NCBI RefSeq assembly: GCF_045037415.1
Contig: NZ_CP173440.1
Source of the DNA: Escherichia coli
Lineage (GTDB): Bacteria > Pseudomonadota > Gammaproteobacteria > Enterobacterales > Enterobacteriaceae
Direction: 5' to 3' (one strand)
Length of the DNA stretch: 64,000 nucleotides
Positions 4,646 through 58,333 of the stretch are shown in pieces (within the stretch, counting starts at the first letter, position 1; every line of letters begins with the position of its first letter). Made by a program: the position numbers and the translations under genes. A model generated the notes under the pieces. That model was given only the letters and a program-made list of their open reading frames with translations, did no database searches and was not told the origin of the DNA.

Positions 4646-5851
4646 ATGACGAATAACCCTACCGATGACAGCAGACCATGGTCGGTCTTTCTTATTTTTC
4701 TGCGGCTTGGATTGACATCTTTTGGCGGCCCCATTGCGCACTTGGGCTACTTCCGCGCCGAATTTGTCACACGGCGGCGCTGGCTCTCCGAACGGAGCTA
4801 TGCTGACTTGGTCGCGCTTTGTCAGTTCTTGCCAGGGCCTGCAAGCAGCCAGGTCGGCATAGCGGTAGGACTGTCTCGGGCTGGATACAGCGGGGCGCTG
4901 GCTGCTTGGGCTGGCTTCACGCTGCCGTCTGCCATAGCCTTGATCCTTTTTGCGCTCGGCATCTCCAGCTATGGCGATTACGTCTCGCAGGGCGCGTTGC
5001 ATGGCTTAAAAGTGGTGGCTGTGGCCGTGGTCGCTCAAGCAGTATGGGGCATGGCGCGTAACCTATGCACGGATGGGCTGCGAGTCACCATCATGGCAAT
5101 TGCTACCTGCGTCGTTTTACTTGTGCCGTCCGCGTGGGGACAGGTTGGCGTGATTGCTATCGCAGGCATCGCAGGCCGGTTATTGTTCAAGCCAGCGAAA
5201 GTTGTTGAGCATGACCCCCTACCTATCACGGTCAGTCACCGGGCCGGCGTGCTTTGGCTCTCGCTGTTCTTTGTCTTGCTGATTGGCCTGCCGGTGTTGG
5301 CCGAACTGATGCCAAGTCAAACCATGGCAATGGTGGATTCCTTCTATCGTGTCGGATCACTGGTGTTCGGCGGTGGTCACGTTGTGCTGCCATTACTGCA
5401 AGCCGAAGTGGTGCCCTCCGGCTGGGTCAACAATGAATCCTTTCTCGCGGGGTACGGGGCAGCTCAAGCGGTGCCCGGCCCTTTGTTCACGTTCGCCGCG
5501 TTTCTTGGTGCCTCGATGAACACCGCCCCGTCGGGCTGGATCGGCGGCATTGTGTGTCTGCTGGCTATCTTCGCGCCCTCGTTCTTGCTGGTCGTCGGAT
5601 CAATGCCATTTTGGGAGCGTTTGCGCCGCAATACAGGCATCCAAGCTGCGCTGGCCGGGATCAATGCCGCTGTAGTCGGCTTGCTGCTGGCCGCGCTGTA
5701 TCAGCCTGTATGGACTAGCGCCATCTTTCAGCCGCAAGACTTCGGCTTGGCATTAGTTGCCCTTGTCGCACTTATGTTCTGGAAGCTCCCGCCGTGGCTG
5801 GTTGTCCTCGGTAGCGGTGCAGCTGGGTGGCTGTTGAGCGTCGCTCTGTGA
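4646..5851 (+). CDS. chrA: Chromate ion transporter ChrA
   Basis: 401-aa polytopic membrane protein MTNNPTDDSRPWSVFLIFLRLGLTSFGGPIAHLGYFRAEF... Confidence 0.9.
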   Translation: MTNNPTDDSRPWSVFLIFLRLGLTSFGGPIAHLGYFRAEFVTRRRWLSERSYADLVALCQFLPGPASSQVGIAVGLSRAGYSGALAAWAGFTLPSAIALILFALGISSYGDYVSQGALHGLKVVAVAVVAQAVWGMARNLCTDGLRVTIMAIATCVVLLVPSAWGQVGVIAIAGIAGRLLFKPAKVVEHDPLPITVSHRAGVLWLSLFFVLLIGLPVLAELMPSQTMAMVDSFYRVGSLVFGGGHVVLPLLQAEVVPSGWVNNESFLAGYGAAQAVPGPLFTFAAFLGASMNTAPSGWIGGIVCLLAIFAPSFLLVVGSMPFWERLRRNTGIQAALAGINAAVVGLLLAALYQPVWTSAIFQPQDFGLALVALVALMFWKLPPWLVVLGSGAAGWLLSVAL

Positions 5852-39559: not shown

Positions 39560-41200
39560 GAACGCAGCATTTTGATTGGTATCGTTGGCCTTCAGGCTCG
39601 TCAGTCAAACAGACCCAGGAGCAGCTCAGCCGGTGGCGCCCGGCTTTCGGGTAACGCCCTGGTCCCGCTGGTTTCGGCTTTGTGCTTCAGGTGATCAAGG
39701 ATCTGCTTGATCACTATAGGGTCTTCAATGCAGGCGATGACTTTCATGGCGCCGCCGCAGCCGCTGCAGGTCTCGATGTCGATATTGAAAACACGCTTGA
39801 GCCGTTGCGCCCATGTCATCGACGCTCGCCGTTGTGCTGGTGTTGCCGGTTCATCAGCCACCCTGACCTTGTTGCCCCTGCCCCGTTTTGCCGGCGTGAC
39901 CAACGCCCGGTGCCGACTGTTGGGTGCGAACACCCCGTGGAAGCGGGTTAGGTTGACTCTGGGCTTCGGTACCAGGGCGGCCAGCCTTGCAATGAAATCC
40001 AATGGTTCGAAAATGACGTGCGTGGTGCCGTCCCGGTACGGCGTCTTGAGCTGGTAGCGCACGTTGCCGCCTCGTGTTAACGACAGCCGCTTCTCGGATA
40101 CCGCCGGGCGGCTGATGTACCGGCACAGCCGTTCGAGCTTCTTGCGTTCATCGGCCCTGGCCGCCACGCCGGCGTGCAGGCTGGACCCGGCTACCTTGCC
40201 AATCCCGTCACCGAACGGATCACCACTGGTCGGCAGAGTTTGCAAAGTGAACACCTTTCGCCCCGCCTGTGAACCGACAGCGATACGGTAAGTGATCGAG
40301 TGCCCCAGCAGGGGTGTCATCGGGTCGTCATCCACCGCATCCGAGGCCAGATAGCTGTTTTCGACATCCCGTTCCAGCAGGCCTTGCCGTTCCAGATAGC
40401 GACCCACCCGGTGGGCGATGGTGTGCGTCAGCTGGGTGAGCTCTGGGCTGGTCGGCGCCTTGACCCAGCGGAAACGCGCTGAGCCGTGGGATTGCTCGAC
40501 ATACACACCGTCGAGAAACAGCATGTGGAAGTGAACATTCAGATTGAGCGCCGATCCAAAACGCTGGATCAGGGTGACCGCGCCCGTCTTGGCCACTTGG
40601 TGGGTATGGCCCGCTTTCTTGACCAGGTGCGTGGCAATGACGCGGTAAACGATGCCCAGCACCCACCCCATGATCTCGGGCCGGCTGGCAAACAGGAAAC
40701 GCAGCTGAAACGGGAAGCTCAACACCCACTGACGCATGGGTTGTTCAGGCAGTACTTCATCAACCAGCAAGGCGGCACTTTCGGCCATCCGCCGCGCCCC
40801 ACAGCTCGGGCAGAAACCGCGACGCTTACAGCTGAAAGCGACCAGGTGCTCGGCGTGGCAAGACTCGCAGCGAACCCGTAGAAAGCCATGCTCCAGCCGC
40901 CCGCATTGGAGAAATTCTTCAAATTCCCGTTGCACATAGCCCGGCAATTCCTTTCCCTGCTCTGCCATAAGCGCAGCGAATGCCGGGTAATACTCGTCAA
41001 CGATCTGATAGAGAAGGGTTTGCTCGGGTCGGTGGCTCTGGTAACGACCAGTATCCCGATCCCGGCTGGCCGTCCTGGCCGCCACATGAGGCATGTTCCG
41101 CGTCCTTGCAATACTGTGTTTACATACAGTCTATCGCTTAGCGGAAAGTTCTTTTACCCTCAGCCGAAATGCCTGCCGTTGCTAGACATTGCCAGCCAGT
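39560..41200 (-). mobile_element. ISCR2 (IS91-like rolling-circle element); oriIS side towards the glmM fragment; ends approximate
   Basis: Contains the 497-aa Rcr2 transposase; canonical sul2-glmM fragment-ISCR2 arrangement. Confidence 0.7.
39601..41094 (-). CDS. rcr2: ISCR2 rolling-circle transposase (Rcr2)
   Basis: 497-aa product MPHVAARTASRDRDTGRYQSHRPEQTLLYQIVDEYYPAFAALMAEQGKELPGYVQREF... Confidence 0.9.
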   Translation of the reverse strand: MPHVAARTASRDRDTGRYQSHRPEQTLLYQIVDEYYPAFAALMAEQGKELPGYVQREFEEFLQCGRLEHGFLRVRCESCHAEHLVAFSCKRRGFCPSCGARRMAESAALLVDEVLPEQPMRQWVLSFPFQLRFLFASRPEIMGWVLGIVYRVIATHLVKKAGHTHQVAKTGAVTLIQRFGSALNLNVHFHMLFLDGVYVEQSHGSARFRWVKAPTSPELTQLTHTIAHRVGRYLERQGLLERDVENSYLASDAVDDDPMTPLLGHSITYRIAVGSQAGRKVFTLQTLPTSGDPFGDGIGKVAGSSLHAGVAARADERKKLERLCRYISRPAVSEKRLSLTRGGNVRYQLKTPYRDGTTHVIFEPLDFIARLAALVPKPRVNLTRFHGVFAPNSRHRALVTPAKRGRGNKVRVADEPATPAQRRASMTWAQRLKRVFNIDIETCSGCGGAMKVIACIEDPIVIKQILDHLKHKAETSGTRALPESRAPPAELLLGLFD

Positions 41201-52399: not shown

Positions 52400-53520
52400 G
52401 TTTACCCGCCAGCGTTGAGGATGACCACCAGCAGCGACCACGCTTACCCGTCAGCGTTGAGGATGGTCACTGGTATCGCCCCTGTTTACCCGCCAGCGTT
52501 GACGGTGACCACCGACAGCGGCCACGCTTACCCGCCAGCGTTGAGGATGACTACCGGCAGCGGTCCCGTTTACCCGCCAGCGTTGAGGATGACTACCGGC
52601 AGCGGTCCCGTTTACCCGCCAGCGTTGAGGATAGCCACCGTCAGCGGCCACGTTTACCCGCCAGCGTTGAGGATAGCCACCGTCAGCGGCCCCGTTTGCC
52701 CGCCAGCGTTGAGGATGAGCACCGGCAGCGGCCACGTTTACCCGCCAGCGTTGAGGATAGCCACCGTCAGCGGCCACGCTTACCCGCCAGCGTTGAGGAT
52801 AGCTACCGTCAGCGGCCACGCTTACCCGCCAGCGTTGAGGATAGCCACCGTCAGCGGCCACGTTTACCCGCCAGCGTTGAGGATAGCCACCTTCAGCGGC
52901 CACGTTTACCCGCCAGCGTTGAGGATGAGCACCGTCAGCAGCCCCGCTTACCCGCCAGCGTTGAGGATAGCCACCGTCAGCGGCCCCGTTTGCCCGCCAG
53001 CGTTGAGGATGAGCACCTGCAGCGGCCCCGCTTACCCGCCAGCGTTGAGGATGAGCACCGTCAGCAGCCCCGCTTACCCGCCAACGTTGAGGATAAGCAC
53101 CGTCAGCGCCCCCGTTTGCCCGCCAGCGTTGAGGATGAGCACCGGTAGCGGATCCGTTCACCCGCCAGCGTTGAGGATAAGCACCGTCAGCGGTCACGTT
53201 TACCCGCCAGCGTTGAGGATAAGCACCGTCAGCGGTCACGTTTACCCGCCAGCGTTGAGGATGAGCGCCGTCAGTGGATCCGTTTACCCGCCAGCGTTGA
53301 GGATAAGCACCGTCAGCGGTCACGTTTAACCGCCAGCGTTGAGGATGAGCGCCGTCAGTGGATCCGTTTACCCGCCAGCGTTGAGGATAAGCACCGTCAG
53401 CGGTCACGTTTAACCGCCAGCGTTGAGGATGAGCACCGGCAGCGGCCCTGTTTGCCCGCCAGCGTTGAGGATGAGCACCGGTAGCGGATCCGTTTACCCG
53501 CCAGCGTTGAGAATGATTCC
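52400..53520. repeat. Tandem array of ~26 imperfect 42-bp repeats (TTACCCGCCAGCGTTGAGGAT + variable 21 bp); core is the inverse of the origin iteron
   Basis: Periodicity and unit read directly; CCCGCCAGCGTTGA is the reverse complement of the upstream iteron core TCAACGCTGGCGGG. Confidence 0.85.
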
Positions 53521-54855: not shown

Positions 54856-55110
54856 TCATATCTCATCGGGGATGAGATGCCACATGGAAGCAGGTATTTT
54901 GTCATAGTTTTTTTTCATGTAGATCTCAGCCCTGCGGTGATCATAAGCTCCGTTCAGGCTGGTTATCTTATTCATATCCCCACCTTCATCATTTAATTTA
55001 TCCAGGATACGCTCAAACACTCGGTCAAGGGTTTCAGTCGTACTGCACTTTCTGAACTTCAGGAGATAGGTTTCTCTCAGGCTACTGTGCGCATTTGGGC
55101 TTTTCAACAA
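54856..55110 (-). CDS. Small hypothetical protein
   Basis: 84-aa ORF, no recognisable family. Confidence 0.35.
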   Translation of the reverse strand: MLKSPNAHSSLRETYLLKFRKCSTTETLDRVFERILDKLNDEGGDMNKITSLNGAYDHRRAEIYMKKNYDKIPASMWHLIPDEI

Positions 55111-55259
55111 CGACGCTCCGGGGCATGTTCAAAAACACTGGCTATTTTCGAAAACAGTAAACGAAGTTCCACGCACAGGCAAGAGAAGCCATTTGATTAA
55201 TTCACGTTCTGCCTGGATTTGAAAAAAAACAATGTTACTATACTGGCTATAAAAACAGT

Positions 55260-57190
55260 GTGCGCCGGGGAACCGGTTAGAGATCAAGGGGTGAAAGTCC
55301 CCGACCATTGAAGGACCAGCAATCCACAAGGTCCCCGAGTCATGCGTTGCATACCGCGAGGTATGGGGCGAAGCGTTGACAGGGGTGTTGACAGGCCAGC
55401 CATTGAGCCACGAAATGTATATTAAATTACCGGGTGCCGACGTTGTACTGTTAACGGAAGGCAACATCATAGGGTGCGATACTGCGAGTGCCACATGGAC
55501 CCGGCGGGGTCTGAGACCCTGGCATGTCAATACGATCTCTACGCGGGAACCGGGAGATCTCCCCTCTGACCATCTGCCAGTGTCGGAGATGGCCCGCACC
55601 GGGAAGACGAGGAGTCATAGCCGGTGATGTACGGAGAGGAGAAGTCGGACTCGCTCATAGTAGCGGCGAAGCAGGCGAACAACCCGAAAGGAGCGGAGTC
55701 AGTGGAGCGAAGGAGCGGGGCCAAGGGGAACGCGGAACAGCCACACATGCGCCGGACACAGAGCCGGGAAAGCATGTCACAGAGGCTGTCACGCGTGCGG
55801 GAAGCTGCGAAGCAGCGGAAGAAAGAACGGTTTACAGCATTGTTCCACCTGCTGACAGTCGAAGCACTGGAAGCCGCATTCCTCTCCCTGAGCAGGAAAG
55901 CGGCCGCCGGAGTGGATGGCATCAGGTGGATGGACTACGCCGGAAACATGAAGAACAACATAACAGATCTGCACCGGAGGCTACATCAGGGCAGCTACAG
56001 GGCGCAGCCCGGCAGGCGTCACTACATCCCAAAAGCGGATGGAAAACAACGCCCGCTCGGCATCGCCTCGCTGGAGGACAAGATCGTCCAGTATGCGCTG
56101 GTGAAAATCCTGAACGCAGTCTATGAAAACGACTTTATGGGGTTCTCATACGGGTTCAGACCCGGGCGAAGCCAGCACGATGCACTGGACGCACTGGCCA
56201 CAGGGCTGGTACGCACTAACGTAAACTGGGTACTGGATGCCGACATCAGTCAGTTCTTCGACAGGGTGAGCCACGAATGGCTGATCAGGTTCACAGAGCA
56301 TCGGATCGGCGACCGGAGGGTAATCAGGCTCATACGTAAGTGGCTCACAGCCGGGACGTCGGAGGAGGGTCAATGGCGAGCAACGGAGGAAGGCACCCCA
56401 CAGGGTGCGGTCATCTCACCGCTGCTGGCAAACATATACCTCCACTACGTCTTCGATCTGTGGGCGCATCAGTGGCGACGTCGCTATGCCACAGGCAATG
56501 TGGTAATGGTCAGATACGCCGATGACATCGTCATCGGGTTCGACAAACGATACGATGCCCGGCGCTTCCGTATAGCCATGCAGCGCAAACTGAGGGAGTT
56601 CGGACTCACGGTTCACCCGGAGAAAACCCGTCTGATGGAGTTCGGCCGCTTCGCTGCCGAAAACCGTGCCATCAGGGGAAAAGGCAAACCAGAAACGTTC
56701 AACTTCCTCGGGTTCACGCACATCAGCGGGAAAGATCGCAACGGCAGGTTCATGCTGATACGAAAGACCCGCCGGGATCGGATGACGGCAACTCTGAAAG
56801 CCATCAAAGACGGTCTGCGAAGGCGCTGGCATTACTCAATCCCCGAACAGGGAAAATGGCTCAGGAGAGTGGTTCAGGGATACCTGAACTATCACTCGGT
56901 ACCGGGCAACTTCCCCACCATGCAGAAGTTCAGGACACACGTAACAAACCTCTGGCGCCGGGCGCTCAGGCGCAGGAGCCAGAAGGATGATACGACCTGG
57001 ACGAAAGCAAACAAACTGGCAGCCGCATGGCTACCAAGGGTTCGGGTTCTTCATCCATGGCCTGTGGAGCGGTTCACCGCCAGACACCCGAGGCAGGAGC
57101 CCGGTGCGTAAATCGCGCACGCCGGGATCTGTGCGGGGGGTATCCGGTAACGGGTATCCCTACCGCGACATCAGTGAAAAGACATGAGAT
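55260..57190 (+). mobile_element. Group II intron (starts GTGCGCC) encoding an RT/maturase; 3' end approximate (within ~30 bp)
   Basis: 5' GTGCGCC at 55260; intron-encoded protein with RT domains 0-7 and X; ~80 nt follow the RT stop, as expected for domains V-VI. Confidence 0.7.
55624..57111 (+). CDS. Group II intron-encoded reverse transcriptase/maturase, no endonuclease domain; N-terminal start uncertain
   Basis: AAGVDG, PLGIASLEDKIVQ, SYGFRPGRSQHDAL, DADISQFFDRVSHEWL, PQGAVISPLLANIYL and YADDIVI motifs. Confidence 0.9.
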   Translation: MMYGEEKSDSLIVAAKQANNPKGAESVERRSGAKGNAEQPHMRRTQSRESMSQRLSRVREAAKQRKKERFTALFHLLTVEALEAAFLSLSRKAAAGVDGIRWMDYAGNMKNNITDLHRRLHQGSYRAQPGRRHYIPKADGKQRPLGIASLEDKIVQYALVKILNAVYENDFMGFSYGFRPGRSQHDALDALATGLVRTNVNWVLDADISQFFDRVSHEWLIRFTEHRIGDRRVIRLIRKWLTAGTSEEGQWRATEEGTPQGAVISPLLANIYLHYVFDLWAHQWRRRYATGNVVMVRYADDIVIGFDKRYDARRFRIAMQRKLREFGLTVHPEKTRLMEFGRFAAENRAIRGKGKPETFNFLGFTHISGKDRNGRFMLIRKTRRDRMTATLKAIKDGLRRRWHYSIPEQGKWLRRVVQGYLNYHSVPGNFPTMQKFRTHVTNLWRRALRRRSQKDDTTWTKANKLAAAWLPRVRVLHPWPVERFTARHPRQEPGA

Positions 57191-57196
57191 CTTCCC

Positions 57197-58333
57197 ATGA
57201 CAGATAAAACCAAACTGGTTGCTATCTCACGAACCGATGACATAAGTGCTCTGGATGCACTCAAGCTGTTGCGGTTTCGCCGGTACAATACGGCCAGAAG
57301 TCAGTTAAGGGTCACGAGTGTCTGGTCTGCATGGTGCGCCAGGCACGGTCTGACCCCCTTCCCGGTCACAGCGGTTGATGTCGAGCGCTATATTAATGGG
57401 CTGAATGGATCCGTTAAAATGGCGACTATCTCTCATTTTATTGCATGCCTTTCAAGCGTTAACAGCAGCCTGGGTTTTCCAGACTTCCGCAACGTTCTGA
57501 TAAAAGCACTGGTTCAGGTATGGCGGGCGCGGGAGAATGAGAAAAAAATCGTCACCGGTCAGGCCCTTCCATTTCTTATATCCGATCTCAATATTCTTCG
57601 CCGGTCGCTGCATAAAAGCGACGACCTGAGAGACATACGGGACCTTGCAATGATATGGGTTGGGTTTGAAACCCTGCTGCGTAACGTGGAAATTCGAAGG
57701 ATTAAAACCGGCGACCTGAAATGGCAAAATGACACGTCCTGTTACCTTCTGGATGTCATGCGGACCAAGACAAGCCTTTCAAGTAACCTGACATTTCAGC
57801 TCTCACCACAATGCAGTCAGCATGTCAGACGGTTGATTGAGACGGTGGAATACACCGATACCGAAACCTTCGGGCACCGTTTTCTTTTTCAGCCTGTAAA
57901 CATCCATACGAACCGATATTTCCCGTCCACCAGCAGTAAGCTATCCCGGGGTAAATCCATAGACAGGATGCTGGTCAAAGCAGGATTCAGTGAGGGGTTA
58001 CTGACGCAGTTACAGAATGAATCAAAGGTATCACGGGAAGATGTTGGAATGCTGTCCTCTAATTCACTGAACCAGGCATTTGCACGCCTCTGGGGGATTG
58101 CCGGGAAGGTCAGCGACAGTAACCGACAGTCCGGGCGGTACCGGACATGGACAGGACACAGTGTGCGTGTGGGGGGAGCCATAGAGCTGTTTAAGGCCGG
58201 GTACTCACTGGAAAAGATTACCGAGATGGGGAACTGGTCTGATCCAAAGATGGTCTTCCGTTATATCCGTGGATATCTTGCCAGTGAAAAAGCCATGGTA
58301 AGCTTTATGCGTAATCATCTGGACGACATATAG
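57197..58333 (+). CDS. Cre-like tyrosine site-specific recombinase
   Basis: 378-aa product; C-terminus GHSVRVGGAIELFKAGYSLEKITEMGNWSDPKMVFRYIR parallels the Cre catalytic H-x-x-R...W...Y region. Confidence 0.6.
   Translation: MTDKTKLVAISRTDDISALDALKLLRFRRYNTARSQLRVTSVWSAWCARHGLTPFPVTAVDVERYINGLNGSVKMATISHFIACLSSVNSSLGFPDFRNVLIKALVQVWRARENEKKIVTGQALPFLISDLNILRRSLHKSDDLRDIRDLAMIWVGFETLLRNVEIRRIKTGDLKWQNDTSCYLLDVMRTKTSLSSNLTFQLSPQCSQHVRRLIETVEYTDTETFGHRFLFQPVNIHTNRYFPSTSSKLSRGKSIDRMLVKAGFSEGLLTQLQNESKVSREDVGMLSSNSLNQAFARLWGIAGKVSDSNRQSGRYRTWTGHSVRVGGAIELFKAGYSLEKITEMGNWSDPKMVFRYIRGYLASEKAMVSFMRNHLDDI

Follow-up and report, generated by a model that had tools for sequence, protein, structure and literature searches.

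The stretch of Escherichia coli DNA analyzed here, 64,000 nucleotides (nt) of contig NZ_CP173440.1 (assembly GCF_045037415.1) and called the window in the following, carries on its plus strand a group II intron (55260–57169; 1910 nt, GUGCG...CGAC) and, on the same strand behind it, an intact gene for a Cre-like tyrosine recombinase of 378 amino acids (aa; 57197–58333). Between the two lies a 27-nt 3′ exon leader (ATCAGTGAAAAGACATGAGATCTTCCC, 57170–57196), and the 5′ exon ends with TACTGGCTATAAAAACAGT (55241–55259), the first 19 of the 20 nt of a LexA box, the operator of the SOS genes. The missing last position is A57170, the +1 base of the target, so that the exons together (TACTGGCTATAAAAACAGT|A) form the 20-nt box with the intron inserted at its 3′ edge. 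A preliminary description of this region (55260–58333, a span that covers intron, leader and recombinase), made from the sequence alone, rightly placed the intron upstream of the recombinase start, where it indeed lies between the likely promoter and operator on one side and the ribosome binding site (RBS) on the other. It overlooked the LexA box, however, and had the intron end 7–10 bp before the ATG, whereas its last base is 57169, 27 nt before the ATG at 57197. The comparisons described below support the view that this intron, which is already known and very abundant, homes into LexA operators, and that the recombinase leader is one such site.

Both intron boundaries were derived from empty sites. 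When the sequence up to 55259 was joined to the sequence from 57170 and this 265-nt query was compared with the plasmid collection, it matched intron-less plasmids with 100% identity in one ungapped piece (H61–H63), which fixes both ends exactly (55260 and 57169); 638 plasmid records cover at least 80% of the query. The terminal motifs, GUGCG at 55260 and CGAC ending at 57169, fit the group II pattern of 5′ GUGYG and 3′ AY. With 3 mismatches in 1910 nt (99.84% identity), the intron corresponds to the copy on plasmid p2 of Klebsiella pneumoniae JM45 (CP006658), which has been named Se.ma.I1/Kl.pn.I5 (PMC6764390). Judged by its sequence, it is a full-length copy of this known mobile intron; the identity was set via the CP006658 copy, the reference host of Kl.pn.I5 being pK245 (DQ449578). 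Kl.pn.I5 has been found in intergenic regions with conserved intron-binding site (IBS) motifs (PMC3522654), and one hospital outbreak yielded two new insertions (PMC8269217). In our genome scans, near-identical copies (99.5–99.8%) occupied many different sites, and a scan of viral contigs with the first 30 nt of the intron gave no match. One copy at the recombinase locus (L053) measures 1877 nt instead of 1909–1910 nt and has an internal deletion of approximately 33 nt. The intron was also detected, with a 100% identical intron-encoded protein (IEP), on an Arthrobacter mobilis scaffold (L007) and on a Myxococcus contig of 381 bp (L039), the former with the same colicin-plasmid flank as in ColE1-type plasmids of E. 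coli and Klebsiella. Its presence on these non-enterobacterial contigs most likely reflects assembly contamination rather than horizontal transfer.

The 5′ part of the ribozyme matches the Rfam family RF02005 (group-II-D1D4-6) end to end (55294–55519; model positions 1–225 of 225) with 186.6 bits at a gathering score of 49. The 3′ domains were assigned by a consensus fold of the last 72–73 nt of 19 relatives from the genome-wide scan, in which domain V (57097–57129), with an AGC triad and an AC bulge, and domain VI (57132–57167), whose bulged A at 57162 marks the branch point at a distance of 8 nt to the 3′ splice site, together comprise 27 pairs. Twelve of these are supported by compensatory double changes, among them pairs of the domain V helix and six consecutive pairs of domain VI. 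The Rfam model for domains V and VI (RF00029) had no match over 55000–57400 even at E ≤ 1, probably because domain V of this lineage is atypical: the middle G of the AGC triad faces an A instead of a U (GAGCC...GGAUC), and the loop consists of 5 nt and is not a GNRA loop. These features are common to nearly all lineage relatives (L010–L038), of which only L037 has the usual sequence GGUUC. The IEP (55624–57111) is a reverse transcriptase (RT)/maturase of 495 aa whose stop codon falls in the domain V loop. It exceeds the cut-off of the NCBIfam model TIGR04416 for group II RT/maturases (373.8 bits versus 300; the match ends at residue 451), and its best relatives in the PDB are group II intron RTs, although neither these neighbors nor the Rfam D1D4-6 family map onto the phylogenetic intron classes. 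RVT_1 was the only Pfam domain (E = 1.6e-46), and the Pfam search of the IEP found no HNH or other endonuclease domain. The intron is, as far as its predicted folding and intact reading frame tell, complete and no remnant. In these respects the preliminary description, which had recognized a complete-looking intron with a GTGCGCC 5′ end and an RT/maturase without endonuclease domain, proved accurate, and the folding of domains V and VI that it had recommended recovered both, the 3′ boundary itself coming from the empty sites. Activity in splicing and retrohoming is predicted indirectly, from the near-identical copies at many sites and the reported new insertions.

The gammaproteobacterial LexA operator has the core CTGT-N8-ACAG within TACTG(TA)5CAGTA. 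At the window locus the corresponding core, CTGG-N8-ACAG, occupies 55243–55258. The 19 nt of the box in the 5′ exon carry IBS2 (approximately −13 to −7) and IBS1 (−5 to −1), and two of the 20 positions of the complete box deviate from the box of E. coli umuD and sbmC (L006, L002). A common upstream element became apparent when intron copies were compared, since their BLAST alignments run approximately 20 nt upstream of GTGCG. In E. coli, copies with 99.5–99.8% identity are directly followed by sbmC, umuD, a DinI-like gene in a P2-like prophage and a colicin-like bacteriocin gene, and another adjoins the S24-peptidase (HumD-like) gene of a P1-like plasmid; each annotated E. coli copy directly follows ...CTGT-N8-ACAGT. 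The genes next to occupied boxes include umuD, sbmC, dinI, colicin/cloacin and humD-like genes. For a broader survey, the genome scan was combined with a scan of metagenomes by a conserved internal 34-mer, which is not conditioned on the flank; together they yielded 43 distinct 30-nt upstream flanks, or 29 non-redundant contexts after similar ones were collapsed. Their consensus, ATACTGTATATATATACAGT|A, is the same as the enterobacterial LexA-box consensus, and the motif precedes 27 of the 29 independent copies. Conservation is high in the left half-site (C at −17 in 25, T at −16 in 27 and G at −15 in 27 of 29) as well as in the right one (C at −4, A at −3 and T at −1 in 28 each, G at −2 in all 29). 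On the 3′ side, A occupies +1 in 17/17 and T occupies +2 in 14/17 non-redundant flanks. Open reading frames (ORFs) beginning 15–50 nt downstream in sense orientation include, by model matches, two further variants of UmuD, two of DinI and SbmC of K. michiganensis. As seen across these copies, LexA boxes of the umuDC/sbmC type are entered at their 3′ edge, the insertion point of this intron lineage being exactly behind the T of ...ACAGT|A. Nineteen of the 20 operator bases, among them the complete core CTGN-N8-ACAG, thereby stay upstream of the intron. Of the 5426 complete E. coli genomes, 5321 have the joined umuD site in its uninterrupted, wild-type form, which implies that the LexA box pre-exists and is not carried by the intron. 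We therefore assign a probability of roughly 80% to the reading that Kl.pn.I5 retrohomed into the LexA operator of a backbone gene for a Cre-like recombinase on a Klebsiella plasmid of the pNDM-MAR type (IncHI1B/IncFIB).

At the umuD operator, 97 of the 5418 matching E. coli genomes cover less than 80% of the joined promoter, and this query matched approximately 100 more places than records. These numbers are consistent with an interrupted umuD operator, possibly by Kl.pn.I5, in approximately 2% of the complete E. coli genomes.

The target is recognized largely through base pairing with the intron. Exon-binding site 1 (EBS1; 55447–55451, 5′-ACUGU) lies in a terminal loop of domain I and pairs with ACAGU at −5 to −1, the right half-site of the LexA box, while EBS2 (55416–55422, 5′-UGUAUAU), in an internal loop of the same domain, pairs with the AT-rich spacer at −7 to −13. 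Across the 29 targets, the pairing of EBS1 with the 5′ exons holds in 141 of 145 cells and that of EBS2 in 183 of 203 as against approximately 20 out of phase, the register of EBS2 being ambiguous by ±2 nt due to the TA periodicity of the spacer. Targets vary at −8 (T or C) and −9 (A or G) in the manner that G and U residues in EBS2 would tolerate. More distant relatives (L012–L015), which share approximately 65–70% nucleotide identity with the intron and 58–68% identity in the IEP, are located in sequences other than LexA boxes, and their EBS1-homologous loops are exactly complementary to the last five to six bases of their own exons: GUUUCC and GGAGAC in L012, UAUCC and GGAUA in L013, CUGUUG and CAACAG in L014, and UAAGCG and CGCUUA in L015. 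This covariation in four relatives validates the EBS1 assignment; in L012, L013 and L015 the EBS2-homologous loop is likewise complementary to the respective, different 5′ exon. Since these relatives target other sequences, the specificity for LexA boxes is a derived trait of the enterobacterial lineage, including L010 and L011 with approximately 92% nucleotide identity. The predicted pairings and their covariation show site recognition to be largely RNA-guided, EBS1 reading the right half-site and EBS2 the TATA-rich spacer. EBS3 or δ, the partner of the +1 A, was not located in the intron.

The pairings specify a 14-mer (TATRYAWACAGTA), and by this sequence rule the good targets are only those LexA boxes that combine a TATA-rich spacer with an ACAGTA right end. 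The left half-site CTG (−17 to −15) is covered by no EBS; it may be read by the IEP, or genomes may simply contain it wherever the RNA-specified 14-mer occurs. A few insertions do without it (L077, L070, L061), which shows that it is no strict requirement. Scoring of the whole window for EBS-compatible sites with G·U pairs allowed was too permissive to be informative.

The product of the gene downstream of the intron aligns with Cre from the PDB (phmmer, E = 3.7e-26), as the preliminary description had anticipated for this same-strand 378-aa protein, and all catalytic residues correspond: R (LLRNVEI in the recombinase, LLRIAEI in Cre), K (RTKT), H and R of the H-x-x-R motif (GHSVRVG, GHSARVG), W (GNWSD, GGWTN) and Y (RYIR, NYIR). 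Pfam assigns it to Phage_integrase (E = 3.2e-9). The length of the ORF is unchanged in intron-less plasmids, in which 26 nt separate the 20-nt box from the ATG. A comparison with intron-less homologs had also been proposed earlier; besides the perfect match of the joined flanks, it revealed that the box, in the form TACTGG(C/T)TATAAAA(A/C)CAGT, is kept in six intron-less homologs of the hha–recombinase intergenic region (75–100% identity; one of them reads TACTGTTTATAAAACCAGTA), while the flanks diverge. On metagenomic contigs with a diverged recombinase locus and a different upstream region (L063, L046, L060, L079, L083, L051), the intron occupies an equivalent LexA-like box (TTACTGGTTATGCATACAGT|). 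There the +1 base is G, and A at this position is accordingly preferred, not obligatory. Conservation of the box in diverged homologs together with its independent occupation suggests that the recombinase is an SOS-regulated backbone gene and a recurrent target; as a reading of the operator sequence, it probably belongs to the SOS regulon.

The intron is very common. A 3.5-kb query comprising intron, recombinase and flanks matched 4866 of 72,556 PLSDB plasmids at 5640 places, mostly via the intron alone, and 234 of 5426 complete E. coli genomes. Hundreds of pNDM-MAR-type IncHI1B/IncFIB Klebsiella plasmids match the whole 3.5-kb region at 99.6–99.9% identity, and the window comes from a plasmid of this kind. 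In their annotation, ltrA, for the RT/maturase of a group II intron, stands ahead of a tyrosine recombinase gene. According to plasmid annotation, the locus lies next to hha, a gene for a RepB-family replication initiator and a Tus-like gene, the plasmid typing as IncHI1B/IncFIB, and IS4321 was found in the related plasmid. With approximately 560 occupied and 638 empty plasmids, the recombinase locus is polymorphic for the intron. Between the RepB-family initiator gene and hha, the window contains 26.6 tandem copies of a 42-bp unit (52400–53516; 87% matches), which are iteron-like and create long spurious ORFs on both strands.

How the intron might be expressed is suggested by the geometry of the promoters that it interrupts. 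Upstream of the window copy, manual reading identified a putative recombinase promoter (55219–55244) with TTGAAA at 55219–55224 and an extended −10 element TGTTACTAT at 55233–55241 and/or TATACT at 55239–55244, which overlaps the left edge of the LexA box and is conserved in intron-less homologs. In approximately ten independent flanks, TTGATC or TTGACC is followed, after a spacer of 17–18 nt, by TACTGT, from which we infer that the left half-site serves as −10 element and that transcription starts inside the box. At most targets the left half-site would thus double as −10 element. Intron transcripts would come from a promoter under SOS repression and have a very short 5′ exon of about 7–12 nt, essentially IBS1: approximately 7 nt for the geometry of these ten flanks and approximately 9–12 nt in the window, if the extended −10 element TGTTACTAT or TATACT is used. 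Intron and IEP would then be repressed by LexA and induced by DNA damage, IEP-assisted splicing would restore the native leader, and the lariat ribonucleoprotein would go on to enter other LexA boxes, be they chromosomal, plasmid-borne or in prophages. Extended to the lineage of Kl.pn.I5 and its relatives with approximately 92% identity, we lean slightly towards a scenario in which EBS1 and EBS2 were retargeted to the LexA operator, so that the members of the SOS regulon, whether they lie on chromosomes, in prophages, on colicin plasmids or on large plasmids for resistance and virulence, form a dispersed family of homing sites. As operator and promoter are preserved upstream, expression and retromobility would be SOS-inducible, occupancy by LexA could protect targets until DNA is damaged, and SOS genes such as umuDC, sbmC, dinI and those for colicins would be rewired or burdened in clinical Klebsiella and E. 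coli.

Not all copies have this orientation. Those antisense to the regulated gene (L003 on a P1-like plasmid, L043, L082, L078 and L084) sit at the promoter-distal edge of the palindromic box, where they would separate the operator and −10 element from the upstream promoter elements and may thereby silence the gene.

Several points weigh against the reading as homing into LexA operators or limit its reach. The core of the window box has one mismatch (CTGG rather than CTGT), the three sites without left half-site are joined by L011 with GTGT, and the intron may need only the approximately 14 nt of spacer, right half-site and +1, in which case the LexA box would simply be where this sequence occurs. 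Because EBS2 needs a TATA-rich spacer, only a subset of the LexA regulon is targetable at all. The 29 contexts are a small sample next to the 5640 places in plasmids. Some copies run in antisense orientation (L003; the L043 group), so that SOS-driven transcription cannot be the mode of expression of all copies. A strict consensus scan detected no σ70 promoter on the plus strand upstream of the intron, and LexA binding, SOS induction, the transcription start and splicing at the window locus are deduced from sequence. Among open-access papers and bioRxiv preprints we found none that links group II introns or Kl.pn.I5 to LexA boxes or SOS genes, although a prior description is possible; the published account of the homing site, based on three copies and positions −25 to +10, mentions neither LexA nor promoters (PMC3522654). 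What is new with respect to the published work on Kl.pn.I5 is the LexA operator as target, its recurrence in front of SOS genes and the assignment of the EBS.

The alternative that the LexA match is incidental, with the intron reading only the approximately 14 nt complementary to its EBS (TATRYAWACAGT|A) and the operator playing no role in expression or mobility, would agree with EBS1 and EBS2 covering −13 to −1 only, with the sites that lack CTG (L077, L070, L061) and with the antisense copies. We consider it unlikely, since CTG at −17 to −15 is present in approximately 25–27 and A at −18 in 23 of the 29 non-redundant sites although no EBS reaches them, an ORF starts within approximately 50 nt in sense orientation in at least 12 of 19 distinct 3′ flanks, and the whole operator core is kept upstream of the intron. 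A different connection takes up the preliminary description, in which recombinase expression may depend on read-through and splicing of an intron in the 5′ untranslated region: intron and recombinase would form a functional unit with expression gated in this way. Both elements are indeed on the same strand, the intron separates the putative promoter and operator from the RBS, and the recombinase ORF is intact. The consensus scan found neither a σ70-like promoter in the 3′ part of the intron nor a terminator inside it on the plus strand, so that recombinase mRNA of occupied plasmids is most simply explained by read-through. A designed coupling nevertheless appears rather improbable, because the same locus is intron-free in approximately 638 plasmids as compared to approximately 560 occupied ones, the same intron takes the equivalent position before unrelated SOS genes, and the LexA box accounts for the position. 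Moreover, the 3′ exon contains the complete RBS as well as the ATG, the latter 27 nt past the splice site, so that unspliced RNA could still be translated. The recombinase may plausibly depend on splicing to some degree, but this would be incidental, and we infer that the intron came to lie in front of the ATG as a side effect of homing into the operator.

Two further explanations concern the element itself. A degenerate remnant unable to splice might be suspected from the RF00029 miss even at E ≤ 1 and from the G·A opposition at the triad and the 5-nt loop of domain V, but nearly all relatives of the lineage show the same oddities in domain V, the two 3′ domains contain 12 compensatory pairs, the ORF is intact, copies of 99.5–99.8% identity occur at many sites, and recent transposition has been reported (PMC8269217); with the comparative fold of 19 relatives this very improbable reading was dropped. 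That the upstream 20 nt travel with the intron, as a part of the element or as co-converted exon, would explain why alignments between copies extend this far beyond GTGCG. The 20-mers vary between sites in the spacer and flanks, however, and the explanation, which we give practically no weight, is refuted by the complete box already present in empty sites, both at the recombinase locus and at umuD in 5321 E. coli genomes.

Two other boxes of the window deserve mention. At 41114–41129 (minus-strand reading AGACTGTATGTAAACACAGT|ATTGC), a LexA-like box (CTGTGTTTACATACAG) precedes by approximately 20 nt the start codon (ATG at 41094, minus strand) of an ORF of 497 aa, which we take to encode an ISCR1/IS91-family transposase. 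The box is a good, unoccupied intron target on this strand (EBS1 5/5, EBS2 6/7, A at +1, T at +2), and its sequence and position suggest SOS control of the presumed transposase. The second one, CTGTTTTTTTGTACAG at 852–867, adjoins the attI1/AAC_AAD_leader Rfam match at 929–1001 and presumably serves as LexA box in the integrase promoter of the class 1 integron. Its spacer is a run of T and fits EBS2 poorly.

If homing into LexA operators is confirmed as the habit of this lineage, a transcription-factor operator would be a new kind of group II intron target beside genes, insertion sequences (IS), terminators and attC sites. It would also offer a simple route to a damage-inducible retroelement that spreads when antibiotics trigger the SOS response, and insertions would alter the regulation of umuDC mutagenesis, gyrase protection by SbmC, colicin production and the backbone recombinase in clinical strains of Klebsiella and E. 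coli. The EBS/IBS rules predict which LexA boxes are vulnerable, and the high frequency of the element in plasmids and E. coli genomes is a reason why the finding matters.

Among known systems, Kl.pn.I5, a group II intron of Klebsiella and Serratia plasmids, is the same element as the window intron (3 mismatches in 1910 nt, also listed as Se.ma.I1). Class C introns, including the IIC-attC lineage with S.ma.I2, resemble it in using a dispersed class of motifs in intergenic regions, namely terminators or attC sites, and in lacking an endonuclease domain. They recognize a stem-loop and short IBS1/IBS3 sequences without an EBS2 (PMC3522654), whereas Kl.pn.I5 has both EBS1 and EBS2, inserts at an operator upstream of genes and not downstream of terminators, and has domains I–IV of the Rfam D1D4-6 type. 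RmInt1 of Sinorhizobium meliloti likewise encodes an IEP without endonuclease domain, and by analogy one might expect retrohoming to be primed at replication forks and to involve EBS1/EBS2 pairing with few protein contacts to the distal 5′ exon (general knowledge; PMC5010178). RmInt1, however, homes into one insertion sequence (ISRm2011-2) and not into the operator of a transcription factor. The use of a repeated short motif as a dispersed safe site is also seen in IS4321/IS5075, which target the terminal repeats of the Tn21 family, and in REP-targeting IS, but these are DNA transposons with protein-based recognition, and we know of no motif-targeting IS that uses LexA operators. The recombinase, finally, is a clear homolog of P1 Cre (E = 3.7e-26) despite low identity and a different length (378 versus 343 aa), and unlike P1 Cre it is encoded by a plasmid-backbone gene with a conserved LexA-like box.

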